A program made the translations under genes and the position numbers. The notes under the pieces are model-generated. The model saw only the letters and a program-made list of their open reading frames with translations, did not search any database and had not been told where the DNA came from. From Geobacter metallireducens GS-15 (GTDB lineage Bacteria; Desulfobacterota; Desulfuromonadia; Geobacterales; Geobacteraceae), in contig NC_007517.1 in NCBI RefSeq assembly GCF_000012925.1, forward strand, positions 3,540,001-3,572,000: a DNA stretch of 32,000 nt, written 5' to 3'. Numbering within the stretch: position 1 is the stretch's first letter; each line of letters opens with the position of its first letter. Shown here piece by piece: positions 1-26,627 of this stretch.

Positions 1-2105
1 AAAATAGTTAATTGCTATTTTTATTTTACGGATACAGTCAAAGGAAGTCTATGGTTAATTTGTTATATATTGCATACTAAAAACGTATGTTTTGCTAGAC
101 TCTTATTAATGGTAACTAGAGATGTCACTCTTACAATACCATTCATTATGTTTGGCGAGACTAATTTGAATCCAGTTCAAATTCGGTTTCGAATGGGTGT
201 AATTCTTCCTCTTCTCTAAATATTGGCGCCATTTCTTTATTCCCCATCCACCAATTCAATTTATCGTTAATTAATTCTGAAGTTACCCGGTACGCTTGTT
301 GTTTCTTGTCGTATTTAATAGTTCGGTAGTTACCGTTTTTGAACCTGACGACGAAGAATCTATCATCTTTTGTGTTTTGCTGTGACTGCCTCATTCCATC
401 CAAATCAATGGTTTTTTCATGCTTCAGAATGTGTTTTTCTGAATCAGATGCACTTTTTATTTTAATTTCGTAGTCTCTTTCTTTCTGTTCTATCTGTTCA
501 TCACTAAAGACGCTTCCTCTCGGGTATACTAATATTTGGCTTATTATTTGTCTTAACTCGTCACGCAATCTGATTCTAAACATTATTTTGTCATCTTCTT
601 TCACTGATTTATTCTGTGCCTTATCCAAAGTAAGCAAATTTTGCACTCTAACATCTATATTATTATTATCATATTCTGCGATGCATATTCCCTTACTCAA
701 TTTTTCTATCTCTTCAGATAGGTTTGTTTTTTCTTCTAACTTTTTCTTTATCTGTTCGTGGTAATGCTCTAATTCTGCTCTTTCAGTAATATCATCTAAA
801 AAAACATTCAACATATCAATTTGTTTTTGCACCTTCATTAGTTTGCCATTTCTTGCCGTTAAGCTTTTTCTCAGTTCATTTAATCTATTCTGGTCTGCCT
901 GTTGTTCTGCTCTAAGCACATATCTAATATCAATTTCTCTGCAATATTCAAAAAATGCTTTCTCGATCTCATTACATTTCATAGAAATGTAACTACACTT
1001 GACTCCGCGTCTTGCACTATCACATACCAGATACCTTACTTCACCTCCAACGTTATGCCTAGCAACAACATCCATACGTGAACCACAGTAACCACACCTT
1101 GTATATCCGCTAAACAAATTTTCTACTTTAGCAGTTCTACCAGGTCTATGTGCTCCGTTTTTCAATTTAGCTTGTACTGCATAGAATGTATCGGTGTCTA
1201 TAATAGGAGGAAAATAATCTTTGATTAGTTCACCGTCCGGAACCGGTTTTGAATGTTTTGAGCCAAACACATGTGGCTGAAACTCTCCAATCACAGCACT
1301 ATTGGAAAGGATTTTTCTGACGGTTGTCTGATACCAACCTATTTTTGACCTAAAAGGTTCTATTTTTTGTTTATTTAATATGGTTGATATTGCCTTTACA
1401 CCAAGACCAGATAAAGATAATTCAAATATTTGTTTTACAATTTCGACTCTGTCTTCTTTCAGTATAAAATCTTTCTTGTCAGGAGTTAGTTCAAGCCACC
1501 CTGGACAATTCGCTGTCAACTTTATATTGTGAAGATTTTTGCGCTTCAGACGCCACGCCGCACATATTCGTTCTGATTTCCGCAAGCTTTCTTCATTTGC
1601 ACGAGCCATAATACCCAAGGAAATGAATATGTTGCCGATATTCGCTTCAAATCCTTCTTTTGTGTACTCCATTTTGTCACTAAGAGTAACGATTTTGATG
1701 CCAGCGTCCAAAATCTCTTGAAATTGCTTGAAGGCTGTCAATACACTCTCTCGACTCAATCGGTCCAGCGATTCGACTAGAAGAACCGATCCTTTAGGCA
1801 CCCGTCCTTGCTTCACAAATTCGAGAAATACACCAAATTCACCTTCCTTGACATGTTCACTCGTGAAGGCGGACTTACCCAAATCTTGATAGGAATGTTT
1901 ATCATCTAGCACTAACCCGTGTTCTTCTGCGTACGTTCGGGAGAGTTGAAGCTGTCTTTCCAAGCTGCTTCCCTCTGCTTGTGTTGCTTTTGAAAACCGG
2001 ATATACGAAATACAAAGAGGTCGTTCCACGGAGAGCTTCCCTGTCTTTAATATTCAACTATGATTAATCTTTATACATTTTTCAGTAGTGCAAATCTATA
2101 CACTA
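1..2105. mobile_element. Right-hand end of an AT-rich integrated element (prophage, ICE or genomic island) that continues beyond the window start and is inserted in radC
   Basis: By eye, composition switches from roughly one-third G+C to roughly two-thirds G+C between ~2090 and ~2125. The terminal gene is a large serine recombinase whose 5' end lies ~80 bp from the junction. The host radC frame starts mid-domain at 2110, directly after an in-frame TAG (2107-2109). Confidence 0.7.
161..2029 (-). CDS. Large serine recombinase (resolvase catalytic domain, recombinase domain, zinc ribbon, coiled coil)
   Basis: 622-aa ORF with a GTG start. The N-terminus ISYIRFSKATQAEGSSLERQ fits the serine-recombinase catalytic motif (Y-x-R-x-S ... 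Q ... SL..Q). GWYQTTVRKILSNSAVIGEF fits the recombinase-domain motif. The Cys cluster CGYCGS...YLVCDSARRGVKC looks like a zinc ribbon and is followed by a K/E-rich coiled-coil stretch. Codon usage is AT-rich, unlike the rest of the window. Confidence 0.9.
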   Translation of the reverse strand: MERPLCISYIRFSKATQAEGSSLERQLQLSRTYAEEHGLVLDDKHSYQDLGKSAFTSEHVKEGEFGVFLEFVKQGRVPKGSVLLVESLDRLSRESVLTAFKQFQEILDAGIKIVTLSDKMEYTKEGFEANIGNIFISLGIMARANEESLRKSERICAAWRLKRKNLHNIKLTANCPGWLELTPDKKDFILKEDRVEIVKQIFELSLSGLGVKAISTILNKQKIEPFRSKIGWYQTTVRKILSNSAVIGEFQPHVFGSKHSKPVPDGELIKDYFPPIIDTDTFYAVQAKLKNGAHRPGRTAKVENLFSGYTRCGYCGSRMDVVARHNVGGEVRYLVCDSARRGVKCSYISMKCNEIEKAFFEYCREIDIRYVLRAEQQADQNRLNELRKSLTARNGKLMKVQKQIDMLNVFLDDITERAELEHYHEQIKKKLEEKTNLSEEIEKLSKGICIAEYDNNNIDVRVQNLLTLDKAQNKSVKEDDKIMFRIRLRDELRQIISQILVYPRGSVFSDEQIEQKERDYEIKIKSASDSEKHILKHEKTIDLDGMRQSQQNTKDDRFFVVRFKNGNYRTIKYDKKQQAYRVTSELINDKLNWWMGNKEMAPIFREEEELHPFETEFELDSN

Positions 2106-2109
2106 TTAG

Positions 2110-2337
2110 AGCATCGTTCATCCCAGGGAGGTCTTCAACCCGGCCGTGCGGGAATCGGCCGCCGCCGTGATCCTCGTCCACAACCACCCAACCGGCGACC
2201 CGGCCCCGAGCCGCGAGGACCAGGAAATCACCCGGCGTCTCCGGGAGGTGGGGGATCTCATGGGGATAAAAGTGCTCGATCACATCATCATCGGCGACGG
2301 CCGCTTCACGAGTTTCGTTTCAGCGGGCTTCATGTAG
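2110..2337 (+). pseudogene. radC: radC 3' fragment (JAB/MPN JAMM domain only); the N-terminal ~two-thirds is displaced by the insertion
   Basis: My in-frame translation is [44 protein letters not shown]...[20 protein letters not shown]. This matches the conserved RadC/YicR C-terminus, including the HNHPSG...S..D JAMM motif. The frame is closed by TAG at 2107-2109, and AT-rich foreign DNA lies upstream. Confidence 0.85.
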
Positions 2338-2347
2338 TAGCAGCGAG

Positions 2348-3232
2348 TCAGTGCCGAAGATACTTGGCAATCCCCAGCTCAAAGCACTCGGGATCGAAAC
2401 CGAAGACCTGGGGCCAGGGGCTCGCGCAGATATTCTCCTCCACGAGCATGGTGATCTGGTCCATGGTGATGGGAAAAAAGGAGAAGCCCTGCATGACTGG
2501 CACGACCAGCTTCATGATCCCCAGGGGGTTGGGGACCTTGGGCACATGCCCCTTGCCGACGATCCGGCCGATGGTATCGAGAAGGTCGTTGTAGGAGATG
2601 CGGTCGGGGCCACAGAGTTCATAGGCCTGCCCCACCGTCTCCGGCTTCTCCAGGGCCAGGACGAAACAGCGGGCCACGTCATCGGCCGCCACCGGCTGAA
2701 GCCGGTACTTGCCGTCGCCGATGACCGGCACTGCCGGGTACGACCTGATGTAACCGGCCAGCTTGTTGATGAAATCGTCCTTGGGACCGAAGACAATGGA
2801 AGGGCGGAAGATGGTCCACTCCAGCCCCGAGGCGCGCACCTCCTCCTCGGCCCGCCATTTGGTCTGATGGTACCGAGAGGTGGCGTTGGGCCGGGAGCCC
2901 AGGGCCGACATCTGGAGATGGCGCCGGATCCCCGCCCGCCGGGCCGCCTCCACGACATTTTGCGTCGCCTCCACGTGGAGTTTATCGAACGTCATTCCCC
3001 GCCCGGGAAACTCCCGGATGATCCCCACGAGATTGATGGTCGCGTCGCATCCCTCCACTGCCGTGGCAAAGGTGTCCAGCCGCGTCACGTCCCCCTCGGC
3101 CTGTTCAACCCCTGCCTCGACCCCCTCGTGCCGGCGGTGGACGAGGAGCCTGATGCGGTGCCCCGCCTCCAGCAACGCCTTCCTCACATGACCGCCGATG
3201 AAACCTGTTCCACCCGTCAGAAATATTTTCAT
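2348..3232 (-). CDS. NAD(P)-binding SDR-family epimerase/dehydratase-like protein (NDUFA9/NmrA-like)
   Basis: The internal start MKIFLTGGTGFIGGHV carries a Rossmann GxxGxxG motif and is preceded by AAGGAGGG. The 29 upstream codons of the track ORF lack support. Length is 294 aa. Confidence 0.8.
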   Translation of the reverse strand: MKIFLTGGTGFIGGHVRKALLEAGHRIRLLVHRRHEGVEAGVEQAEGDVTRLDTFATAVEGCDATINLVGIIREFPGRGMTFDKLHVEATQNVVEAARRAGIRRHLQMSALGSRPNATSRYHQTKWRAEEEVRASGLEWTIFRPSIVFGPKDDFINKLAGYIRSYPAVPVIGDGKYRLQPVAADDVARCFVLALEKPETVGQAYELCGPDRISYNDLLDTIGRIVGKGHVPKVPNPLGIMKLVVPVMQGFSFFPITMDQITMLVEENICASPWPQVFGFDPECFELGIAKYLRH

Positions 3233-3390
3233 GAAGCCCTCCTTCAGCCCAGGCGATGGTGGTGTGATGAGTGAAGTGTACCGTACTGCCGTCCATTTGC
3301 CAGCACCACGTGTATACAAGACCCTTGTGATTGACCGGCGGGTGTGTTAATAAAGAATCATTTATCGAGACATGGGGAGGATAGAAAACC

Positions 3391-23743: not shown

Positions 23744-24016
23744 ATGAAGCAACTGATTGCAGCAGTAGCCCTCACCATCTTTGCCGCCGGGGCGGCCATG
23801 GCGGCCGACACCCTCACCTTCCCCGCCAAGAACGGCAACGTGAGCTTCGGCCACAAGAAGCACCAGCAAGTAGCGGGAAGCTGTAAGGCATGCCACGAAA
23901 AGGCCCCCGGCAAGATCGAAGGGTTCGGCAAGGACTGGGCCCACAAGACCTGCAAAGGGTGCCACGAGCAGAAGAAGGCCGGCCCCACCAAGTGCGGTGA
24001 GTGCCACAAGAAGTAA
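23744..24016 (+). CDS. ppcB: Periplasmic triheme cytochrome c7, PpcB-like (PpcA family)
   Basis: Signal peptide, then ADTLTFPAKNGNVSFGHKKHQ...CKACH...CKGCH...GPTKCGECHKK with three CxxCH motifs. AAAGGAG precedes the ATG. The symbol rests on similarity and on adjacency to the ppcC-like gene. Confidence 0.8.
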   Translation: MKQLIAAVALTIFAAGAAMAADTLTFPAKNGNVSFGHKKHQQVAGSCKACHEKAPGKIEGFGKDWAHKTCKGCHEQKKAGPTKCGECHKK

Positions 24017-24043
24017 TCTCTTCGGCCGAATCAGCCGGAACAG

Positions 24044-24069
24044 GGGGCGGAGCGATCCGCCCCTTTTTT
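24044..24069 (+). terminator. Intrinsic terminator after the ppcB-like gene
   Basis: GGGGCGGAgcgaTCCGCCCC followed by TTTTTT. Confidence 0.8.
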
Positions 24070-24107
24070 CATTGCCCCCTCCCCCCAAACCCGATATTCT
24101 CGACCGG

Positions 24108-26627
24108 ATGAAGCGGTACTTTTCAGAGCAGGCCATCCTCGACATGCGGGCCGCCATCGCGGCGGCGGGGGGAAACGAAGTCTTCTTCCTGGGGCGCACC
24201 GACGAAAACCGGATCGTGACCGAGGCGGAGCCCCTGGCCCGGGGGAACCGGGACGCGGTTGCCGCCATCATGATCGCCACCAGCTTCGGCGACGTGGTGA
24301 TCCACAACCACCCCTCAGGGAACCTTGACCCCTCCCAGGCCGACATCGAGATCGCATCCCTCCTGGGGAACCAGGGAGTCGGCTTTTCCATCGTGGACAA
24401 CGCCGTGGAGCGGTGCTATCAGGCGGTGGCCCCCTTTGCCCGGCGGGAGACAGAGCGGCTGTCATTCCCCGAGATCGAGCGGATTTTCGCGCCGGCCGGG
24501 GTCCTGGCAGCCAATCTCCCCGGTTACGAGCACCGGGAAGAGCAGCTCCGGATGGCCTTTGCCGTCACCGAGGCGTTCAATGACGACCGGGTGGCGGTCA
24601 TCGAGGCCGGCACCGGCACCGGCAAATCCCTCGCCTATCTCGTCCCGGCGGTGCTCTGGGCCATCCGCAACAAGGAGCGGATCGTCGTCTCCACCAACAC
24701 CATCAACCTCCAGGAACAGCTCATAAAAAAAGACATTCCCTTCCTCCAGCGCCACGCCGGGGTCCAGTTCCGGGCAGTCCTCGTGAAGGGTCGCTCCAAC
24801 TACCTCTGCCTCCGGAAACTGGCCGGAGTCAAAAGCGAACCATCCCTCTTCGCCGATGACCCGGCGGCCGGGGAACTGGAGGCGATCATCGCCTGGAGCG
24901 AAAAGACGGCCGAGGGATGCCGCAGCGATCTCTCCTTCATCCCCAAGCCGGAGACCTGGGAGGAGGTAGCCTGCGAGGCGGACCAGTGCGGCCGGATCAA
25001 GTGCCCCCTTTACGCCCGCTGCTTCTTCTACGGCGCCCGGCGCCAGGCGGCAAGCGCCGATGTCCTCGTGGTGAACCACGCGCTCCTCATGGCCGACGTG
25101 GCCCTGCGCCAGGAGACCGGCTACCGCTCCACCGCCATCCTCCCCCCCTTCGAACGGCTCATGGTGGACGAAGGGCACCACCTGGAGGACGTGGCCACCG
25201 GGCACCTCTCCTCTCAGGTCTCCCGCCAAGGGATCCTGAAGCTCCTGGGGCGCCTCCAGAATCCGCGCAAAGCCCAGCGGGGGCTCCTGCCCCAGCTCTC
25301 GGCCCAGCTCTCCCGGGAGGTGCCGGTGGAGCTGGACGACCTCTACCGGGACCTGGCCGAGCGGCTGGAGGAAAAGCTCATCTCCCGCACCCAGGAGCTG
25401 GCAGCCGGGGCGGTGCGGGCCATGGACGCCATCGGCCTCGCCCTCCTCTCCCACCTGAAGGGGAAGGGACCGGAGAACGGGGAAAAGAAGCTCCGGGTCA
25501 CCCCGTCCCTCTTCGGCTCAAAGCTCTGGCAGGAGACCGACGACGAGGCCCGGGAGCTGGCCGCGGACCTGAACACGTTCGTGCGGGAGCTGAAGGAATT
25601 CCTCACCGGGTGCGGACGGCTCCCGGAAGCGGTCCAGGAGAAGCTCTCGGGGCTCCTCGTGGACCTTCGGGGGGTGACGGGGCGCCTCGAAGCCTTGGCC
25701 GCGGACCTCCTCTTCTTCATCGGCCGGGACGGCGAAGTCTGCCGCTGGTTCGAGGTGAAAAAAGGGGCCAAGGGGATAGCGGTGAGGCTCTGCGCCTCCC
25801 CCCTGGAGGTGGCCGCCTCCCTCAAGCGAACTGTCTTCGACGCCTTCCGGACCGTGGTGGTCACCTCGGCCACCCTGGCGGTGGGGGAAACATTCGACTA
25901 CCTGGAAGGTCGGACCGGAATCGCCCTTCTGGACCGGGGACGAGTGACGGAGCTCCTCCTCGCATCCCCCTTCGACTACGAGCGCCAGGCCTTCGTCGGT
26001 ATCCCCGCCGACCTTCCCGAGCCCACGTCAAGGGGGTTCCAGGAGGCCCTGGAGGTGGCCCTCCACCGGGGGCTCGCCATCTCCAACGGCCACGCCTTCG
26101 TCCTTTTCACCTCCTACGACCTCCTCTCCCGCATCCACGGCAGGATGGCAGAGGCGCTGCGGCGCCGGGGGCTCACTCCCATGCGCCAGGGGGAGATCAA
26201 CCGGCACCACCTCCTGGCCCGGTTCCGGAAGGAGCCCAACGCGGTCCTTTTCGGCACCGACTCCTTCTGGGAAGGGGTCGACGTGCAGGGGAAGGCACTG
26301 GAGCTGGTGGTCATCACGCGACTCCCCTTCCGGGTACCGACGGAGCCGATTCTGGAGGCACGGGCCGACCACATCGCCCTCCGGGGAGGGGACCCCTTCA
26401 TGGAGTACACGGTCCCCCAGGCGGTCATCAAGTTCAAGCAGGGATTTGGGAGGCTGATCCGGAGCAGGGAGGACCGGGGAGCGGTCCTGATCCTCGACAG
26501 CCGGGTGCTTTCGAAAAACTACGGGCGGTTTTTCCTCCGGTCGCTGCCGCCGGTACGGCTTGCGGACGGCGGCAGCGGGGAGGTCTTCGGGGAGATGGAG
26601 CGGTTTTTCAGCTCTTCGCCTTCATGA
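24108..26627 (+). CDS. dinG: DinG/XPD-family Fe-S DNA helicase with an N-terminal JAB/MPN (JAMM) domain
   Basis: One continuous ORF. Residues ~1-110 carry E (NEVFFLG) and HNHPSGNLDPSQAD (JAMM H-x-H-x7-S-x2-D). Next come Walker A (AGTGTGKS), a 4-Cys cluster (CEADQCGRIKCPLYARC), a DEAH-type box (DEGHHLED) and C-terminal helicase motifs (TSATL, FGTDSFWEGVD, QG.GRLIR). I placed the start after the ppcB terminator. No clear SD precedes it. Confidence 0.85.
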   Translation: MKRYFSEQAILDMRAAIAAAGGNEVFFLGRTDENRIVTEAEPLARGNRDAVAAIMIATSFGDVVIHNHPSGNLDPSQADIEIASLLGNQGVGFSIVDNAVERCYQAVAPFARRETERLSFPEIERIFAPAGVLAANLPGYEHREEQLRMAFAVTEAFNDDRVAVIEAGTGTGKSLAYLVPAVLWAIRNKERIVVSTNTINLQEQLIKKDIPFLQRHAGVQFRAVLVKGRSNYLCLRKLAGVKSEPSLFADDPAAGELEAIIAWSEKTAEGCRSDLSFIPKPETWEEVACEADQCGRIKCPLYARCFFYGARRQAASADVLVVNHALLMADVALRQETGYRSTAILPPFERLMVDEGHHLEDVATGHLSSQVSRQGILKLLGRLQNPRKAQRGLLPQLSAQLSREVPVELDDLYRDLAERLEEKLISRTQELAAGAVRAMDAIGLALLSHLKGKGPENGEKKLRVTPSLFGSKLWQETDDEARELAADLNTFVRELKEFLTGCGRLPEAVQEKLSGLLVDLRGVTGRLEALAADLLFFIGRDGEVCRWFEVKKGAKGIAVRLCASPLEVAASLKRTVFDAFRTVVVTSATLAVGETFDYLEGRTGIALLDRGRVTELLLASPFDYERQAFVGIPADLPEPTSRGFQEALEVALHRGLAISNGHAFVLFTSYDLLSRIHGRMAEALRRRGLTPMRQGEINRHHLLARFRKEPNAVLFGTDSFWEGVDVQGKALELVVITRLPFRVPTEPILEARADHIALRGGDPFMEYTVPQAVIKFKQGFGRLIRSREDRGAVLILDSRVLSKNYGRFFLRSLPPVRLADGGSGEVFGEMERFFSSSPS

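Follow-up and report, generated by a model that had tools for sequence, protein, structure and literature searches.

The window analyzed here is a 32,000-nucleotide stretch of the Geobacter metallireducens GS-15 chromosome (NC_007517.1, positions 3,540,001 to 3,572,000). It opens with AT-rich DNA encoding a large serine recombinase (LSR) and passes abruptly into the middle of the radC gene, which raises the question of how these two sequences came to lie side by side. Window positions 1–2107 are very probably the end of a low-GC mobile island of about 10 kb that sits between radC codons 154 and 155 and was integrated there by its own LSR. The analysis documents the anatomy of the island, both of its junctions, its family, its attachment (att) sites and a clean insertion by comparison with an empty site. 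The LSR, Gmet_3143, presumably catalyzed the integration. The G. metallireducens copy is judged to be fixed now and is quite possibly immobile.

The G+C content is 0.363 for window 1–2107 and 0.628 for 2108–32000. The first segment is the right-hand end of the island, and nucleotide homology to the radC of intact relatives begins at 2108 (AGAGCATCGT...), after codon 154. The features at this end are as follows.

1–160, minus strand: island interior spacer from the LSR stop codon to the next island gene (Gmet_3142), placed by mapping to the adjoining sequence
161–2029, minus strand: large serine recombinase of 622 amino acids (aa), Gmet_3143, ABB33356.1, WP_004513858.1, from Pfam and PHROG matches
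2030–2082, minus strand: AT-rich LSR leader and upstream region inside the island, the sequence between the LSR start and the att arm
2083–2107, no strand: attP-derived half-site of attR, the LSR-proximal arm, cagtagtgcaaatctatacactatt, from the junction table and the reconstructed attP sites
2108–2109, no strand: inferred crossover dinucleotide AG, nucleotides 2–3 of the radC Gln154 codon in attB, from junction comparison
2108–2117, no strand: 10-bp core AGAGCATCGT, common to attL (AGAGTATCGT at L084 10461), from junction comparison
2110–2337, plus strand: radC 3′ remnant, codons 155–229 and the stop, including the JAB motif, Pfam RadC 3.7e-31
2348–3319, minus strand: gene of the NAD-dependent epimerase/dehydratase family in the host flank, Pfam Epimerase 3.1e-24

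An earlier note, made from the letters of the window alone, had described much of this end, and the measurements agree with it. It saw an AT-rich block switching sharply to GC-rich host DNA, and the G+C content of the 60 bp to the left and right of the junction is 0.217 and 0.683, a step completed over 120 bp. It placed the 5′ end of a 622-aa LSR about 80 bp from the boundary, and the GTG start codon at 2029 is 78 bp away; this gene, at 161–2029 on the minus strand, is the only long open reading frame (ORF) in the AT-rich part of the window. It had radC beginning mid-domain at 2110 after an in-frame TAG. The TAG occupies 2107–2109 directly before the remnant frame, and the remnant (SIVHPREVF...) matches positions 48–119 of the 121-position Pfam RadC profile. 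The roughly 150 N-terminal codons that it reported missing number 154 when counted against the full-length radC of relatives. The intact JAMM motif and the in-frame GTG at 2146 are likewise present, the motif as HxHx7Sx2D.

The missing part of radC was located on the opposite side of the island. The radC gene is about 228–229 aa or longer in about 75 of the 80 loci listed, which come from Geobacterales and other phyla, and no 5′ part was found elsewhere in the window. A search with the N-terminal 153 residues of a relative's RadC identified P0195, a 157-aa "RadC" of G. metallireducens strain RCH3 that ends in SLNQSIV and a stop. It is encoded on contig AGJM01000041.1 directly after bacA, and AT-rich DNA then follows. 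Joining P0195 residues 1–154 in silico to the 75 codons that remain in the window (a 100% match to residues 155–229 of the joined protein) yields a gapless 229-aa RadC that is 96.5% identical end to end to the intact metagenomic protein P0207. The order bacA-radC-epimerase is uninterrupted in the relatives L004 and L006. The two RCH3 contigs would give this order if they flank a single insertion, and the epimerase gene appears from this synteny to be the ancestral downstream neighbor of radC. The attB site of G. metallireducens is a reconstruction and not an observed site. The earlier note had argued for site-specific integration into radC with the cargo lying leftward, and AGJM01000041 carries both the radC 5′ part and restriction-modification (R-M) cargo. 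Three checks bear on that proposal, and all support it: the far end of the AT-rich block does hold the radC 5′ part, the junction recurs in independent assemblies, and relatives possess a full-length radC, including a near-isogenic empty site for the sister island L103.

An unrelated deletion or rearrangement could in principle have truncated radC and left the LSR next to it by coincidence. The window shows only one side of the event, and nothing specific favors this idea. The 5′ part ends at the exact codon where the 3′ part begins, the two junctions have a 10-bp core in common, and eleven islands with related LSRs break radC at the same dinucleotide. A coincidental truncation is hardly credible.

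Other RadC-related sequences were noted. The radC frames of L004 (9538–10228, Geomobilimonas luticola) and L034 (2461–2907) are shorter, 203 and 148 codons counted from the upstream stop; two overlapping tblastn segments suggest a frameshift in L004, and there is no LSR near either gene. Within the window, an 876-aa ORF at 23997–26627 on the plus strand carries a RadC-like JAB motif (VVIHNHPSGNLDPSQADIEIA) at its N-terminal end, and the region after it resembles, by eye, a DinG/Rad3-type helicase. A weak second RadC-like match at window 24294–24407 is the JAB domain of this protein and is unrelated to the split radC.

The earlier note's other explanation was an assembly chimera between Geobacter DNA and a low-GC contaminant. 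The composition step (0.22 to 0.68 over 120 bp) would fit such a join. The window sequence is also present on RCH3 draft contig AGJM01000029.1, where the window starts at contig position 809; the 808 bp to its left encode a 203-aa small resolvase, and the contig then ends, so a draft assembly with a contig end close to the junction also speaks for a chimera. However, the radC-LSR junction is identical in the Logan assemblies L002, L003 and L097–L102, which come from different sequencing runs. The LSR is indexed in 59 blocks of the Logan collection and the complementary radC 5′ junction in 52, and dozens of independent assemblies show both junctions. The annotation of the finished GS-15 chromosome includes the LSR, and there are ten sister islands of the same architecture. 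Because the radC-LSR junction is identical in so many independently assembled runs, a chimera is excluded for all practical purposes. The LSR sequence is identical in the type strain GS-15 (ABB33356.1) and in RCH3, and the island DNA of the two strains is 100% identical. Apparent differences in island gene length between them (623/638 aa and 333/331 aa) come from gene calling alone.

Sequence comparison makes the G. metallireducens island one of at least 11 radC-specific LSR islands in Geobacterales, a family with varied R-M or defense cargo. LSR homologues that could be traced to contigs are 45–53% identical, and ten other Geobacterales islands with related LSRs split radC at the same codon. 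Nine of these are independent forward islands (L093, L094/L095, L096 from the complete genome of Geotalea daltonii FRC-32, L103, L104, L105, L106, L109 and L110), in which a radC 5′ fragment comes after bacA and the LSR lies 60–120 bp 3′ of this fragment. On contigs of sufficient length, the radC 3′ fragment follows 9–11 kb further on. Their cargo includes a C5-methyltransferase (MTase) with a BsuBI/PstI restriction endonuclease (REase), a C5-MTase with a GIY-YIG protein, CoiA-like and PLD nucleases, and ThiF, M78-HTH and SmaI genes. The backbone is more constant. The LSR is present in 8/8 islands compared and a Rep-like ORF of about 180 aa in 4/8. A small resolvase 70–74% identical to Gmet_3142 is found in four of the islands compared (L094, L096, L103 and L109); clustering places a small resolvase in 5/8 (Gmet, L094, L096, L103 and L106), a count that includes two distant homologues in L106. 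All LSR relatives with usable context lie in the radC of Geobacterales, in islands that are G+C-poor relative to their host. The earlier note had held the donor lineage to be worth a look; an exotic low-GC donor need not be assumed, because the sister islands in Geobacterales radC are likewise G+C-poor. A search of open-access papers returned no LSR islands in radC and no description of this Geobacterales family; the papers it did return, on Tn554-type elements, Wolbachia phage WO and integrative and conjugative elements, deal with radC in other roles.

Two features recur in some sister islands. An ORF of 138–140 aa lies directly 3′ of the LSR in L109 (2106–2528), L094 (11931–12353), L096 (11927–12346) and L110 (2201–2617), with 51–89% identity among the copies. 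Pfam and PHROG give no match to this ORF, which the G. metallireducens island lacks; it is a candidate for an accessory or directionality factor. A second att-like palindrome (AAATGGTACAC...N...GTATACCATTT) lies between attL and the LSR start in L094 (9885–10000), L104 (9882–10000), L105 (9877–9990) and L109 (30–154), and may be an autoregulation operator or a second binding site. It is not present in the G. metallireducens island.

The junctions of the family localize the crossover. Every island with both ends available has the same dinucleotide at both junctions, at nucleotides 2–3 of the Gln154 codon. The dinucleotide is AG in the G. metallireducens island, L108, L093, L094 and L109, and AA in L103, where the host codon is CAA. 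The junctions of L094 share AG alone. The G. metallireducens junctions have the 10-bp core AGAG(C/T)ATCGT in common, which contains the dinucleotide without pinning it by itself. The crossover lies to the left of the C/T position because the core has C in attR and T in attL and the attB of relatives has C. Comparison of the L103 island with the near-isogenic empty site L023 gives the same picture: the flanks, 98.3% and 97.4% identical, have an overlap of exactly 2 bp, and L023 lacks the 10,335-bp island. A 2-bp staggered exchange without target duplication, as seen here, is the signature of serine-integrase integration.

Rejoining the island ends gives the attP sites. In five complete islands the reconstructed attP is a near-perfect palindrome, GGGTTAAAT-nn-TACAC-N6-[AG]-N6-GTGTA-nn-ATTTAACCC, and the distal att arm of G. 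metallireducens fits this pattern. The reconstructed attB of G. metallireducens is GGAAGCCTCAACCAGAGCATCGTTCATCCCAGG and its reconstructed attP is CTATACACTATTAGAGTATCGTGTAGAATTTAACC. In the proposed mechanism, the quasi-palindromic attP of a circular form of the island would pair with attB in the conserved radC coding stretch for ...S-L-N-Q|S-I-V-H-P..., and the LSR would exchange strands at the 2-bp core AG (window 2108–2109) without target duplication.

The islands occupy this site in both polarities. In G. metallireducens the LSR-proximal arm adjoins the radC 3′ part, whereas in the nine forward islands it adjoins the radC 5′ part. Relative to radC, the G. metallireducens island has its LSR, small resolvase and Rep-like gene all in inverted orientation, and because all of the backbone genes are inverted, the whole element is flipped at the same dinucleotide. 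The reverse polarity is found again in L108 (Ga0182021_10245213, 2,099 bp; approximately 895–2020), whose distal arm is almost identical to that of G. metallireducens. L108 is a relic with 438 bp between the radC halves: only the first 56 LSR codons are left, together with both att arms intact and a terminator-like hairpin, and the rejoined RadC is 92.6% identical to the intact orthologue L027. The suggestion that the L108 LSR fragment is distinctly closest to Gmet_3143 was withdrawn, since the identity is 73% compared with up to 70% for N termini of the forward clade. The two polarities agree with the behavior of the Bxb1 and phiC31 integrases, in which the asymmetric central dinucleotide alone sets the orientation of integration. 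Because the att arms are palindromic, reversed polarity would require only a complementary central dinucleotide relative to the body of the element.

Domain searches place Gmet_3143 among the serine integrases. The protein matches Pfam Resolvase (1.6e-16, residues 7–164), Recombinase (8.1e-20, residues 192–290) and Zn_ribbon_recom (9.4e-11, residues 305–364), which gives it both the catalytic domain and the recombinase plus zinc-ribbon region of that class, and its PHROG match is to integrase (3.3e-80). In an alignment of 18 sequences of the clade, Y9, R11, S13, Q17 and D89–R93 fall in invariant columns, as do the zinc-ribbon cysteines C312, C315, C336 and C345. No phage or plasmid record contains an LSR more than 34% identical to it, and none of the phage records exceeds 33%. 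A scan for sigma-70 promoters near the junction gave nothing convincing above background. The second recombinase of the island, the 203-aa small serine resolvase/invertase Gmet_3142, has its start codon 25 nt to the left of window position 1. At L001 12055–12666 it matches Pfam Resolvase (2e-35), HTH_7 and the PHROG DNA invertase family (4e-43). Its counterparts in L094 (14592–15203), L096 (16881–17513), L103 (10337–10927) and L109 (4903–5514) are conserved at 70–74% between islands compared with 45–51% for the LSR. Multimer resolution, inversion and regulation are possible roles.

The sequenced parts of the island comprise 6,731 and 2,913 bp (at least 9.6 kb) and correspond approximately to Gmet_3135–3143 in GS-15. 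The order is bacA, radC 5′ (154 codons), attL, the Rep-like ORF, small ORFs, GmeIP, the 331/333-aa ORF and M.GmeI, followed by a repeat gap, the small resolvase, the LSR, attR, radC 3′ (75 codons) and the epimerase gene. The genes between attL and the gap are listed below.

After attL: 179-aa Rep-like ORF, a sub-threshold rolling-circle Rep match (REP_ORF2-G2P, 25.2 bits against a cut-off of 27.8), conserved in four islands
After the Rep-like ORF: small ORFs of 59, 74 and 60 aa, without matches
GmeIP: AlwI-family REase, 572 aa, RE_AlwI 1.1e-187, profile positions 1–441 of 441
Between the R and M genes: 331/333-aa DUF7226 protein
M.GmeI (GGATC): 638-aa fused double D12 N6-methyladenine (m6A) MTase, MethyltransfD12 in two stretches, PADLOC MTase_II 1410 bits over the full length

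The PADLOC matches in the island are the Type II REase and the MTase. An AlwI-family REase together with a fused double m6A MTase places the cargo in the AlwI/EacI/GmeI group; the REase activity of the island protein is predicted. Gmet_3140 is M.GmeI, for which SMRT sequencing (single-molecule, real-time) revealed GG(m6A)TC and G(m6A)TCC methylation (Murray et al. 2012, PMC3526280). The same work designated Gmet_3138 as GmeIP, a putative REase, and noted a 333-aa ORF between Gmet_3138 and Gmet_3140 (PMC3526280). The island genes were flagged as atypical low-G+C genes in the 2009 GS-15 genome paper (Aklujkar et al., PMC2700814 Table S1), whose supplement lists the LSR as Gmet_3143 and Gmet_3142 as a "resolvase-like protein"; its main text mentions neither radC nor any recombinase.

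This cargo bears on the idea that the island is a prophage or what is left of one. Serine integrases are a typical feature of temperate phages, and the PHROG match of the LSR is to the "integrase" family. However, no phage structural, packaging or lysis family matched among the screened island ORFs, of which only the two recombinases match PHROGs. R-M genes, two recombinases and small ORFs take up the sequenced 9.6 kb, the length of complete sister islands is just 9–11 kb, and phage records lack an LSR above 33% identity. A phage origin is very unlikely. Relaxase, coupling protein and type IV secretion genes were also absent among the screened island ORFs.

The gap in the island is located between the M.GmeI gene and the small resolvase, where every assembly breaks (L085 16578–16614, L002 5212–5247, and the ends of L084, L001 and L097–L102). 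Both RCH3 contigs end in the same 10-mer, GATATCGAAA. The Logan contigs read about 27 nt further on each side, into mutually inverted repeats (ACTACTGTCCGGT...). Ten independent contigs have this motif, all at their ends, and the window and the 110 loci contain no further copy of it. Because a 10-bp direct repeat surrounds inverted repeats at the point where every short-read assembly breaks, the gap probably contains a multicopy insertion sequence (IS), presumably Gmet_3141. One Logan contig departs from the window elsewhere. L002 1–1085 (SRR29924352_316) is 100% identical to the window through 3328 and then continues into unrelated G+C-rich coding sequence where the window has the rubrerythrin gene; either a rearrangement in the sample or a misjoin in the assembly graph would produce this.

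Several points weigh against integration of the island by its own LSR. The halves of the island lie on separate contigs, and their adjacency is deduced from the gene order of relatives and from the succession of locus tags in GS-15. G. metallireducens yielded neither an excised circle nor an empty site, and a collection of about 15 billion proteins does not contain the exact rejoined RadC. The LSR-proximal arm is irregular, with 4 nt between TACAC and the crossover compared with 6 nt in each of the five other complete islands, and its outer motif is degenerate. No directionality factor was recognized, and the small island ORFs have no Pfam, PADLOC or PHROG match. No radC gene is called alongside P0242, the LSR homologue that comes closest (53% identity). 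P0242 (ENA ERZ1426841, a 9,233-bp contig) was called as 822 aa with a junk-like 200-aa N-terminal extension, and its neighbors are AAA_25 and lepA; an uncalled radC fragment may lie under the extension, or the target may be a different one.

Whether the island still moves is a separate question. The earlier note suggested that excision could restore radC. The in-silico join does restore the reading frame; excision itself is unproven, and neither an empty site, nor a recognizable directionality factor, nor phage genes were found. An active reversible switch, excising to restore radC in the manner of active lysogeny or of skin and SPbeta, would be compatible with a full-length LSR ORF that has all of the clade-invariant catalytic residues and with a crossover dinucleotide that matches at both junctions. 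Neither stops nor frameshifts interrupt the radC halves of this island or of L093, L094, L103 and L108, and their precise join restores the frame. These intact halves are not evidence of cycling, because the relic L108 has lost the LSR, and with it the means of self-excision, yet keeps both halves intact. The rejoined RadC is missing from the protein collection despite more than 50 assemblies of the organism, and both sequenced strains (GS-15 and RCH3) carry the island. The 4-nt spacing and degenerate outer motif of the LSR-proximal arm, the IS-like insertion inside the island, and the loss of the 140-aa ORF that follows the LSR in L109, L094, L096 and L110 also argue against activity. We consider a functioning switch doubtful.

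All split radC halves examined are intact ORFs, even in L108. The halves could be kept by selection, either for reassembly or because the HhH N-terminal and JAB C-terminal parts are functional separately. RadC might act on incoming or mobile DNA. It is improbable, in our estimate, that radC is a preferred landing site because incoming defense islands gain from its splitting or because the split serves the host as a reversible switch. No conditional requirement for radC is known.

The results have practical consequences. G. metallireducens GS-15, a model metal reducer, is a natural radC-split strain, and the GmeI R-M system, with its relevance for transformation efficiency, is carried by a serine-integrase island and is not part of the core genome. 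About ten related serine integrases are available with inferred attP and attB sites, a known crossover dinucleotide and one conserved 40–50-bp coding target, and both polarities occur naturally, so that studies of the specificity and orientation of integrases gain a useful starting set. The family is also a second, independent recombinase system with radC as its target, which has a bearing on what RadC does. How such elements are understood to work at present is unchanged. What is new is a small family of a well-understood kind of element, with cargo that was already characterized. Three points go beyond the routine: one radC codon is targeted throughout the family, both polarities are found in nature, and the family converges with Tn554 on radC.

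Comparison with known systems places the island among the serine-integrase elements (the phages Bxb1, phiC31, A118 and TP901-1, and non-phage elements such as SCCmec with Ccr). It has in common with them a three-domain LSR, an integrase gene that adjoins the att site, a quasi-palindromic attP of about 40–50 bp, a 2-bp crossover without target duplication, a target in conserved coding sequence and, by the rule established for Bxb1 and phiC31, a polarity that the central dinucleotide sets. It differs from them in that a target at radC codon 154/155 in a Geobacterales host was not among the described cases found, and in an LSR whose identity to the phage and plasmid LSRs of the collections does not exceed 34%. 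Its cargo is R-M and defense genes rather than a phage genome or a resistance cassette, and both polarities occur at one site. Like skin (sigK, SpoIVCA), SPbeta (spsM, SprA) and the Listeria comK prophage, the island splits a host ORF so that precise excision would restore the frame, and like skin and SPbeta it is LSR-borne. Unlike these, it is not a phage, no evidence of excision, regulation or a directionality factor was found, and several features suggest decay; the likeness extends no further than the geometry of the split. The cargo resembles the GmeI/AlwI/EacI Type IIS R-M systems, with a REase that matches RE_AlwI end to end and a MTase that is a two-D12 fusion, and differs from them by the extra DUF7226 ORF between the R and M genes. 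The published description of GmeI did not place the system on a radC-integrated LSR island.

A parallel in target choice is the Tn554 family of Firmicutes (Tn554, Tn558, Tn559, Tn5406 and Tn6188), which inserts site-specifically into a highly conserved stretch of radC and leaves insertion mutants; in Listeria the insertion lies between radC bp 540 and 541, at about codon 180 (PMC3788773). Both groups target radC and carry varied cargo on a conserved recombination backbone (PMC3788773). The island is not of the Tn554 type: the recombination genes are tnpABC transposase genes in Tn554 and serine recombinases here. The tnpABC transposases are described as tyrosine-type, and no tnpABC-type family matched among the screened island ORFs. 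The break after codon 154 (bp 462) lies apparently about 25 codons upstream of the Tn554-family position, a distance between two RadC proteins that were not aligned. Two unrelated recombinase systems, Tn554-type elements in Firmicutes and an LSR clade in Geobacterales, have converged on conserved stretches of radC as their target.

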